Shown one piece after another: positions 6,741-13,607 of a DNA stretch of 13,630 nt. Numbering within the stretch: the first letter of the stretch is position 1; each line of letters opens with the position of its first letter. The stretch is from the UHGV virus genome UHGV-0353144; one strand, written 5' to 3'. The notes under the pieces were generated by a model that was given only the letters and a program-made list of their open reading frames with translations, was not told where the DNA came from and made no database searches. A program made the position numbers and the translations under genes. The DNA comes from a virus.

Positions 6741-7462
6741 TAAGCAGCCTCCCCGGTTACTTTCAGCATTCCGTTATCGAGCAGCTTTCTGGTCAGCCAC
6801 TGTTGACCACGCCCGGTGATTTTTGTGGTGAACGATATCTGTATTCCGTGATTTGTGTTGACCGCTGTTTCTTTCACTGTGAAATAGCCGCGATCCATAT
6901 ATTCCTGCATTGGCACATTGCGCCGGGAACCTGAAGCAATAAGGATTTTGTGATCGCGCATCCACGCAAACAGTTTGTTTGGACCAATTCCAACAACCTT
7001 TGCAAAGTTTCCAATCAAAATTCCGCTGGCCTCGCCAACGCGATCGGCAAACTCAACTTTAGGTGCGGCAATTGCGAACTGGTTTTCCAGTTGCATTTTC
7101 TGCTCAGCAAGATCAGCAGCAAGGCGCAACGCTTCTGGTAGCGTTTTGGGGATATTAACCGCAGCTTCTTCAAGATCTCGCCAGCGGTCAACAAGGCGAG
7201 CGGTGAACTCTGGCGACAACTGGGCAACAACAACAATACTATCTCGCTTACCTTGTTCGCCTTCGAAGACGTAAGCCTCGACACTACGTCGCAGTCCTAA
7301 GTTATTGATTTTTTCGAAAACCTGCAATGCAGGAAGTTGAATAACTCCAGATTTAGCCAGGCGCTCTATTGATATTTTTACGTTATCTGGACGACTTCCC
7401 ACCAAATCAGCGATTTCAATGCTTGTCATTTTGATGGCATTGCCATTTATTAACTCATTCAT
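6740..7462 (-). CDS. phage antirepressor-like regulatory protein (Rha-type N-terminal domain + ANT/KilAC C-terminal domain)
   Basis: 240-aa ORF. N-terminus TSIEIADLVGSRPDNVKISIERL resembles the Rha family; C-terminal half (AIAAPKVEFADRV...FAWMRDHKILI...GRGQQWL) resembles the ANT antirepressor domain. Both by recall. Confidence 0.65.
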   Translation of the reverse strand: MNELINGNAIKMTSIEIADLVGSRPDNVKISIERLAKSGVIQLPALQVFEKINNLGLRRSVEAYVFEGEQGKRDSIVVVAQLSPEFTARLVDRWRDLEEAAVNIPKTLPEALRLAADLAEQKMQLENQFAIAAPKVEFADRVGEASGILIGNFAKVVGIGPNKLFAWMRDHKILIASGSRRNVPMQEYMDRGYFTVKETAVNTNHGIQISFTTKITGRGQQWLTRKLLDNGMLKVTGEAA

Positions 7463-11645: not shown

Positions 11646-11784
11646 GACCTTTCTCCTTCTGCATCAGCTTCACTTTTTCCAACTCAGCCCGGAATCGACC
11701 AGGCTGCTTGAAGCTGGACAGGAAGCGATCACGTAGTATGTTTTTGTGCATTTTGTCCTGGTAAGGACTGAGTGGTTTTGTCAT
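11638..11784 (-). CDS. hypothetical small protein (48 aa)
   Basis: Hand-translated: [48 protein letters not shown]. Strong SD GAGGAGG 4-5 nt upstream of ATG at 11784. TAATG stop-start overlap with the 134-aa ORF; its stop overlaps the O-like start. Below the ORF-track size cut-off. Confidence 0.4.
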
Positions 11785-12188
11785 TAAGCCTCCTCTACTT
11801 CGTAATCAGCGAAGTAACCAGTAGACATTTTTAAAAACCTTGATTCGGTGACTGTGTAAGCCTTCCTTCCTTTCCTCTCCTTGCCTTCAGGCTCTATGAG
11901 GTGGCACGAATAAATGATTCTGCGCTGCCAGTTGCCTGGCATTTCCACCACTGCCAGAACCTCAAGAATTCTCTTTCCTTCAGCATCAGCGGTGTAAAAA
12001 CACTGATCACCATAACCACAATCGGCTGGCTCATAATTTTTGTGACAACCGCCAATCCAGCGCTCATCGGTATGCACGTTGCCGTCATAAGACTGATAAT
12101 CTGTGCATACGAAGATAAATGGATATACGGTTTCGAACTTGTCACCGGCCTTTATGCCGGTGTTTACTTGCTTGGTTTGTCCTGGCAT
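11784..12188 (-). CDS. hypothetical Cys/His-rich protein (134 aa) inserted between cII and the O-like gene
   Basis: ORF-track ORF 11784..12395 (203 aa) would overlap cII by ~170 nt. ATG at 12188 has an AGGAG SD (ACAGGAGTAATT-ATG) 34 nt after the cII stop. Product [65 protein letters not shown]... has 5 Cys and 3 His. No family recognised. Confidence 0.6.
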
Positions 12189-12580: not shown

Positions 12581-12612
12581 GCCCTTTTTCAGGGCTGGGA
12601 TGTGTAAGAGCG
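12581..12612 (-). promoter_or_regulatory. nutR (boxA CGCTCTTAC + boxB GCCCTGAAAAAGGGC), lambda-type N utilisation site
   Basis: Minus strand reads CGCTCTTAC (12604-12612) ... GCCCTGAAAAAGGGC (12581-12595), the canonical lambda boxA and boxB hairpin, directly downstream of cro. Confidence 0.8.
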
Positions 12613-12620
12613 GGAATGTC

Positions 12621-12836
12621 TTAAGCGGCTTTGTGTTCCGGCGGGAACACGTCATCAAGACTGACTTTTGCGCCTAACTTGTTTAGGCACTCAACAAGAG
12701 CACGGCATGTTTTAAGGTCTGGGAAGCGACGACCAGATTCCCAATGTCCGATAGCTCCCTGTGTGCATCCAACTGCCTTAGCAAGTGTTGTTTGAGAGAT
12801 ATTCAGTGACTCTCGATATTTTCGTAGGTTGCTCAT
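12621..12836 (-). CDS. cro: Cro-like repressor (HTH, XRE-type)
   Basis: ORF-track ORF 12621..13007; ATG at 12836 with GGAGGG SD gives MSNLRKYRESLNISQTTLAKAVGCTQGAIGHWESGRRFPDLKTCRALVECLNKLGAKVSLDDV (71 aa). Divergent from cI across the operator region. Shares the TQG-IGHW recognition-helix motif with the cI N-terminus. Confidence 0.75.
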   Translation of the reverse strand: MSNLRKYRESLNISQTTLAKAVGCTQGAIGHWESGRRFPDLKTCRALVECLNKLGAKVSLDDVFPPEHKAA

Positions 12837-12947
12837 ATGCCCTCCATAGTAACCATGAAACAATAATACGATATGTACTTTTAGAATGCAAACAAAAAAT
12901 ACATCTTGTGCATGGATGGTTTTAGTACAGAGCGTAATAATAAGGGT
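12837..12947. promoter_or_regulatory. immunity control region (OR) with divergent PR (toward cro) and PRM-like (toward cI) promoters
   Basis: Minus-strand PR candidate: TTGCAT (12886-12891), 17-bp spacer, TATTAT (12863-12868). Plus-strand TAATAAT (12935-12941) sits just before the cI ATG, a PRM-like near-leaderless arrangement. The motif TACGnnnTGTAC occurs at 12867-12878 and inverted at 12925-12936; a related copy lies at 12900-12912. Operator boundaries are not resolved. Confidence 0.55.
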
Positions 12948-13607
12948 ATGAAAATGAAATGGTATGAACTGGCTAGATCCAGAATGAAAGAGCTCGGCAT
13001 AACTCAAGAGAAGTTAGCTGAAGAGCTTGGTATGACGCAGGGTGGAATTGGTCACTGGTTGCGCGGATCTCGTCATCCATCTCTTGACGAGATTGGTGTG
13101 GTGTTTAAATACCTTGGTATTGATAACGTCTCATTCAACCACGACGGTACATTTTCACCTGTTGGCGAATACTCATCTGCCCCCGTTAAAAAACAATATG
13201 AGTACCCTGTTTTTTCTCATGTTCAGGCCGGGATGTTCTCGCCTGAGCTTAGAACCTTTACCAAAGGTGATGCGGAGAGATGGGTCAGCACAACCAAAAA
13301 AGCCAGTGATTGTGCGTTCTGGCTTGAAGTTGAAGGTAATTCCATGACCGCGCCAACAGGATCCAAGCCAAGCTTTCCTGACGGGATGTTAATTCTCGTT
13401 GACCCTGAGCAGGCTGTTGAGCCAGGTGATTTCTGCATAGCCAGACTTGGTGGTGACGAGTTTACCTTCAAGAAACTGATCAGGGATAGCGGTCAGGTGT
13501 TCCTACAGCCACTAAACCCGCAATATCCAATGATTCCATGCAATGATAGCTGTTCCGTAGTAGGGAAAGTTATCGCCAGCCAGTGGCCTGAAGAGACATT
13601 TAGTTAA
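12948..13607 (+). CDS. cI: CI repressor (non-lambda N-terminal HTH domain, lambda-type C-terminal S24 autocleavage domain)
   Basis: ORF 12906..13607; ATG at 12948 ([40 protein letters not shown]...). From [31 protein letters not shown] through [24 protein letters not shown] to the C-terminus it matches lambda cI by recall; the N-terminal ~90 aa do not. Confidence 0.9.

Follow-up and report, generated by a model that had tools for sequence, protein, structure and literature searches.

A cro-OR-cI lysogeny switch, very probably of the VT2-Sakai/cI2c immunity type, in a mosaic lambdoid phage genome

The closest described relatives of the switch analyzed here come from Stx phages. Smith et al. 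(2012) described the repressor variant cI2c, for which lambda CI was 100% identical at the carboxy terminus and the amino terminus was unique (PMC3430580). Fagerlund et al. (2022) grouped lambda CI with Stx-phage CI in Clade I, the Eru2/Eru3 members of which were 61% identical to lambda CI (PMC8951638). As far as the account of Fattah et al. (2000) in PMC10742460 goes, the VT2-Sakai CI displays high C-terminal and low N-terminal homology to lambda CI, as well as cross-immunity. EMSAs of lambda CI on VT2-Sakai sites have also been published, and the operators listed there (PMC10742460, Table S1) are the same six that the GenBank record AP005153 annotates as 17-bp 'putative operators'.

The window, i.e. 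the whole stretch of DNA that was analyzed, is one strand of 13,630 nucleotides from the virus genome UHGV-0353144. Judged from its sequence, the region 12621-13607 very probably belongs to a lambdoid immunity region of the VT2-Sakai/cI2c type and makes up its right-hand half (cro, OR, and cI), with the mechanism proposed below. The window ends 23 bases past cI, and OL, PL, and N were therefore read from a near-identical phage. An earlier note on this DNA had proposed a cognate cI/Cro pair with a lambda-type tail on a non-lambda head, and this core reading held. The note had placed the region at 12837-13607, which takes in cI and the spacer, but Cro falls outside, at 12621-12836. The genes and protein domains are as follows.

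12501-12223, minus strand: cII of the lambda family, downstream of cro (Pfam Phage_CII, E 4e-43)
12836-12621, minus strand: cro, 71 aa, an all-alpha HTH_3 Cro (from the ORF list)
12741-12764, minus strand: recognition helix of Cro, TQGAIGHW
12840-12845, minus strand: Shine-Dalgarno sequence of cro, GGAGGG
12837-12947: cro-cI spacer, 111 bp between the divergent genes
12948 (or in-frame ATG 12954)-13607, plus strand: cI, 219 aa (from the ORF list)
12948-13196, plus strand: N-terminal DNA-binding domain and linker of cI, aa 1-83 (Pfam HTH_3 E 8.3e-11, residues 11-58)
13035-13058, plus strand: recognition helix of cI, TQGGIGHW
13197-13607, plus strand: C-terminal S24 autocleavage and oligomerization domain of cI, lambda type (Pfam Peptidase_S24 E 8.9e-29, residues 87-209)
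13227-13232, 13341-13343, and 13470-13472, plus strand: cleavage site Ala94-Gly95, Ser132, and Lys175 of cI, mapped to lambda

The immunity type was that of VT2-Sakai/cI2c: 12621-13607 displayed 93-94% DNA identity with VT2-Sakai, the Stx1-converting phage AP005153, Stx2-II, 2851, Nil2, 1717, YYZ-2008, and the PA-series Stx2a phages. The P22-like phages vB_EcoP-720R6, 683R2, Louie, and Dewey carried the module with 99.6-100% identity. The head, Cro, and OR were collinear with those of VT2-Sakai (94.1% DNA identity over 12621-13195), and the operators, with OL1-3 read in 720R6, matched the six annotated and published 17-mers. Relative to the VT2-Sakai (Sp5)-type phages, Cro differed at one of 71 residues and cI at seven, with an unchanged recognition helix and the same promoter layout; the DNA divergence of ~6% was concentrated between the operators and included a 1-bp indel. 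Homo-immunity with the VT2-Sakai-type phages is predicted from the identical recognition helices and the conserved half-sites. About one in seven complete E. coli genomes (776 of 5,426) carried the immunity-specific part (12621-13200), and in 115 of them the identity was at least 99%. The Clade I repressor mentioned above is presumably the cI2c-type repressor of the window.

The reference copy of VT2-Sakai (NC_000902) differs from that of the window in one further respect, as its cI has a CAG-to-TAG change in the Gln codon of the recognition helix (~13038-13040 here), whereas the window copy is intact. This TAG codon splits the VT2-Sakai cI into two annotated fragments. Smith et al. (2012) tied the stop codon to the non-inducible Sakai prophage (PMC3430580).

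The similarity to the Stx phages was directly seen to end exactly at the gene ends of the module (12621-13607), and on the left side of cro HK620 and Sf6 matched best, a pattern that amounts to classical lambdoid module mosaicism. The backbone around the module is itself a mosaic, P22-like or HK620/Sf6-like. The flanks differ from those of the VT2-Sakai type, which is a Stx phage, while the window has cII and nutR of the HK620/Sf6 type and a P22-like backbone.

Within cI, the DNA turned lambda-like abruptly at 13197, a linker position immediately ahead of YEYPVF (Tyr84 corresponds to lambda Tyr101), and the likeness ended at the cI stop codon. The earlier note had matched the C-terminal ~130 residues to lambda cI, and the alignment bore this out: residues 84-219, counted with the stop codon, were identical to lambda cI at 134 of 137 positions (~98%), the differences being S139C, E217D, and G236S in lambda numbering, and the DNA was identical at 383 of 411 positions (93%). 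The codon differences in this domain were 24 synonymous and three non-synonymous, which shows purifying selection. Among solved structures, cI matched the full-length lambda repressor with E 2e-96 (PDB 3bdn) and the C-terminal domain of lambda with E 2e-89 (8gmu); together with the Pfam matches, these made the assignment of the domains unambiguous. The A94-G95, S132, and K175 of cI align with A111-G112, S149, and K192 of lambda, and with its N-terminal HTH and a C-terminal Peptidase_S24 domain having the Ala-Gly site and the Ser/Lys dyad, cI has the domain features of the LexA/cI-type S24 autocleaving repressors. The 98% identity to the lambda domain suggests that cI undergoes RecA-stimulated self-cleavage at Ala94-Gly95 by Ser132/Lys175.

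The N-terminal part of cI gave a different picture. DNA upstream of 13197 yielded no alignment with lambda, and BLASTP aligned only the 26-residue helix-2/helix-3 core of the head with the lambda head (12 of 26 residues identical, 46%; E 1e-7). Lambda Gln44 and the acidic positive-control positions were kept (E34 as E and D38 as E). The head is 17 residues shorter than that of lambda and is devoid of the long N-terminal arm. In view of this core match, the cI head is a strongly diverged member of the same HTH_3 family as the lambda head. The statement that it is unrelated to the lambda HTH domain therefore goes too far, although the divergence is strong and the DNA cannot be aligned. A lambda-type head with the recognition helix QSGVGALFN was not found in cI, nor was a Cro of the lambda fold: Cro matched HTH_3 (E 1.4e-12), HTH_31, and HTH_19, its sequence was unlike that of lambda Cro, and it is all-alpha, whereas lambda Cro is alpha+beta.

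The Cro protein and the cI head were 35% identical over 62 residues (E 5e-13), and the recognition helices TQGAIGHW and TQGGIGHW share the motif that had been pointed out before. By their sequences, the two are a paralogous HTH_3 pair. The Cro and repressor head of phage 434, and those of P22, likewise form paralogous HTH_3 pairs that have residues of the recognition helix and operators in common. Among solved structures, those nearest to Cro included the P22 C2 and 434 repressor heads with marginal similarity (E 0.006-0.1), and the operators and the C-terminal domain of 434 and P22 differ from those here. The cI head was 96.4% identical to the Stx-phage cI heads and 54% identical to those of the Salmonella P22-like phages g341c, epsilon34, and SPN9CC, whose C1 is a full-length orthologue (70% overall; Cro 43% identical). 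The annotated sites of g341c, ATAC-N5-GTAT, have the same core and spacer as those here, but the recognition helix of g341c, TKGAVSHW, is unlike TQGGIGHW. The distance between the OR1 and OR3 centers is 59 bp in g341c, as in the window; its middle site is ambiguous, and the best candidate gives a spacing of 24/35 as against 33/26 here.

The operators and promoters are listed below; strand is given for the promoters.

12864-12880: OR1, TAATACGATATGTACTT, overlaps the PR -10 element and spacer
12897-12913: OR2, AAATACATCTTGTGCAT, the weakest dyad, centered at about -49 relative to PR and about -43 relative to the putative start of PRM
12923-12939: OR3, TAGTACAGAGCGTAATA, overlaps the PRM -10 element
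12863-12891, minus strand: PR promoter, -35 TTGCAT at 12886-12891, 17-bp spacer, -10 TATTAT at 12863-12868, inferred start near 12856
12913-12941, plus strand: putative PRM promoter, read from the sequence, -35 TGGATG at 12913-12918, 17-bp spacer, -10 AATAAT at 12936-12941
7187-7203, 7220-7236, and 7245-7261 of phage 720R6 (99.9% identical), beyond the end of the window: OL3, OL2, and OL1

Two exact copies of TACGnnnTGTAC occur in the 13.6 kb, both in the cro-cI spacer and inverted, where 0.03 are expected. The motif TACGNNNTGTAC matched the 13,630-base window twice, at 12867-12878 (plus strand) and 12925-12936 (minus strand), against 0.03 expected from shuffles, and none of the 200 shuffles reached two. 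The bare core TACN5GTA gave three matches versus 1.2 expected, which is not significant; it is informative only as a longer motif or as a dyad matrix. These 12-mers, taken in the earlier note as marks of OR1 and OR3, lie within 17-bp dyads and are thus the inner parts of OR1 (first motif) and OR3 (second motif), i.e. the cores of published operators. They are indeed inverted and present in two copies, but they overlap the -10 elements of PR and PRM by just 1-2 bases, the full 17-bp operators doing so by 4-5 bases. The note had counted two sites and missed the third, OR2.

The operator is a 17-bp dyad, (T/A)A(G/A)TAC-N5-GTA(C/T)T(T/A), with a half-site consensus of (T/A)A(G/A)TAC(A/G), in which A5 and C6 were invariant in 12 of 12 half-sites. 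A weight matrix made solely from three sites beyond the window, the OL sites of the 99.9%-identical phage, ranked OR1 first, OR3 second, and OR2 third among 13,614 window positions. When OR2 was left out of the matrix, it still ranked third of 13,614 and was the only other positive-scoring site of the spacer. It is a weak dyad, its score being 8.9-9.7 versus ~8.4 for the best background elsewhere in the window. No positive-scoring site was found near center 12896, where a lambda-spaced OR2 would lie. In AP005153, which is 6% diverged, the top six positions of the weight matrix were all six annotated operators. OR1 was identical to the published VT2-Sakai OL1 at 16 of 17 positions and to OR1 at 15 of 17; OR2 and OR3 were identical to the published OR2 and OR3 at 15 and 16 of 17 positions, respectively. 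Operators with TATCACCGC-type half-sites, as in lambda (L003 2952-3015), were not found; the half-site is AGTAC(A/G) here versus ATCACC in lambda. The earlier note had named as an argument against itself a head of known immunity type whose mapped operators do not correspond to the motifs. The immunity type is known, yet its annotated operators coincide with the motifs.

The consensus scan reported PR as TTTGCA/18/TATTAT, and AP005153 has a 'putative major rightward promoter' at the same position. The PRM elements have eight of 12 consensus matches, which is below the threshold of the scan, and they match the 'putative maintenance promoter' in the same record. From the positions of these elements, +1 would be at ~12948, the A of the first ATG of cI, suggesting that the cI mRNA is leaderless, as in lambda. 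The cI gene opens with two in-frame ATGs (MKMKW, 12948-12956). The first falls on the start predicted for a leaderless PRM transcript, and the second (12954) has AAGGG (12942-12946) at a proper Shine-Dalgarno distance, which would serve the second ATG on longer transcripts. The start of cI differs among GenBank records: ON470605 places it at the equivalent of 12954, and AP005153 at an ATG further upstream, within OR2.

We infer the whole mechanism from this anatomy and from established lambda biology. Dimers of cI would bind the three 17-bp dyads via the HTH_3 head. At OR1, cI would cover the PR -10 element and turn off cro and rightward early transcription. At OR2, which abuts the weak PRM -35 element at about -43, it probably activates PRM, since OR2 is at a lambda-like position and the acidic positive-control residues are conserved. 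At OR3, cI would cover the PRM -10 element, resulting in autorepression, and the PRM transcript, starting at the cI AUG, is probably leaderless. Cro, as a paralogue of the cI head with a near-identical recognition helix, would bind the same dyads and favor lytic growth. The lambda-type tail would supply dimerization, cooperative tetramer/octamer contacts, and RecA-stimulated self-cleavage. Because the tail is ~98% identical to that of lambda and has the cleavage site and Ser132/Lys175, induction is expected to be coupled to the SOS response, as it is in lambda.

Lambda and the window have in common HTH_3 heads, a set of three 17-bp dyads between the divergent promoters PR and PRM, and probably a leaderless cI transcript. 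The spacing of the sites is different in spite of the near-identical cooperativity domain. The center-to-center distances are 33 bp for OR1-OR2 and 26 bp for OR2-OR3, and 33 and 25 bp at OL (720R6), as compared with 24/23 bp at OR and 24/20 at OL in lambda. The 6%-diverged Stx-phage variant has 32/26 at OR and 33/25 at OL. The PR -35 element falls in the gap between OR1 and OR2, whereas in lambda it is inside OR2, and the PR and PRM starts are ~92 bp apart versus 83 in lambda; relative to PRM, OR2 is centered at about -43 as against -42 in lambda. The 33 bp between OR1 and OR2 make ~3.1 helical turns, and the 26 bp of OR2-OR3 and 25 bp of OL2-OL1 are near the lambda spacing. If lambda-type pairwise cooperativity favors the close pair, OR2 and OR3 would load together; in addition, the shared tail might permit mixed oligomers with the lambda-type repressors of co-resident prophages. 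We regard this reading as distinctly unlikely. Were it true, joint loading of OR2 and OR3 would lead to strong PRM autorepression, a low repressor level, and 'hair-trigger' behavior. Such behavior has been proposed for other Stx prophages.

Other readings of the operators and of the origin of the hybrid were considered. The possibility that the functional operator is the asymmetric 12-mer, with two inverted copies making a two-site switch devoid of OR2, draws on there being exactly two copies in the window as against 0.03 expected. It is scarcely credible, however, as G4 and T8 of the 12-mer fall in the 5-bp spacer of the dyad, which is variable at other sites (AAATC, ATTTT, and AAAGC at OL; AATAT in VT2-Sakai OR1), the dyad model fits six sites per phage in two diverged variants, and a third positive-scoring site lies between both motifs. 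With the 17-bp dyad retained as the operator, a further question is whether the immunity is novel and arose by a recent graft of a foreign head, Cro, and operators onto lambda cI, as in the imm-swap recombinant with its own specificity that the earlier note had envisaged. The abrupt similarity to lambda from 13197 to the cI stop codon does have the look of a recombination junction in some lineage. The same junction and head are nevertheless found in the 6%-diverged VT2-Sakai-type Stx phages and in the 776 E. coli genomes, and the repressor type is already in the literature as cI2c/Clade I. Moreover, the C-terminal domains of the window, lambda, and the Stx phages are about equally distant from each other (93.2, 91.5, and 92.9% DNA identity), so the window did not recently acquire the copy of lambda itself. 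The full-length g341c orthologue (70% identity overall, 54% in the head) argues that the head-tail pairing is old; the recombinant could just as well be lambda. A novel immunity from a recent swap is thus very improbable, and both 'novel' and 'recent' are contradicted; the sequences point to an old head-tail junction, and the swap may have gone in either direction.

There is also the question of whether the VT2-Sakai/cI2c-type immunity of the window partly overlaps that of lambda, either by cross-immunity through residual likeness of helix and operators or by mixed dimers and oligomers between prophages through the shared tails. The A2, A5, and C6 positions are common to the operators, and Gln44 is kept. 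The work of Fattah et al. (2000), to the extent that it is recounted in PMC10742460, pointed to cross-immunity between VT2-Sakai and lambda, and lambda CI bound all six VT2-Sakai operators at 3.7-6.4 µM, as compared with 0.2-3.1 µM for its own sites (PMC10742460). However, such micromolar affinities for short oligonucleotides approach those of non-specific binding, and positions 3, 4, and 7 are not the same in the two half-sites (TATCACC versus AGTACA). As to the tails, the domains are identical at 134 of 137 positions, and the DNA for the lambda-type C-terminal domain was found at 1,428 places in 1,207 of the 5,426 E. coli genomes, with up to three per genome, versus 802 places in 776 genomes for the head-and-cro part. 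The larger number of genomes with the C-terminal domain shows that the tail is common to at least the lambda and VT2-Sakai immunity types, and by these counts different heads on the same tail sometimes co-reside in one cell, which favors the overlap. On balance, we consider a partial overlap with lambda immunity unlikely.

Around the module, a boxA-like CGCTCTTAC and a boxB hairpin, GCCCTGAAAAAGGGC, are present between cro and cII (~12582-12614, minus strand). We take these to be equal to the lambda nutR boxA and boxB, and the specificity of N-antitermination therefore looks lambda-like, though the immunity is not that of lambda. An ORF of 134 aa (11784-12188, minus strand) lies between cII and a 48-aa orf/the O replication gene, where lambda has nothing; it matched phrog_30464 (function unassigned) end-to-end (E 3e-95), had no Pfam match, and is Cys/His-rich. 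Phage 720R6 lacks this ORF at the corresponding place, and it is possibly a moron-like insertion. A scan of the whole window at the Rfam gathering threshold gave no matches. None of the phage records and none of the complete E. coli genomes covered at least 80% of the window, the best being HK620 (49%) and an E. coli prophage (63%). The backbone is thus a unique mosaic in those collections, each module of which is common.

The switch of the window is an ordinary cro-operator-cI lysogeny switch. As its immunity type has been published before, has annotated copies in GenBank, and is very common, it is of little importance as a discovery; what is gained is a clean assignment to the VT2-Sakai/cI2c immunity group with exact operator and promoter coordinates. 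The module is also a natural case in which the lambda oligomerization domain acts on operators with another spacing, and it would lend itself to tests of how cooperativity and prophage stability depend on that spacing in the Stx-phage relatives.
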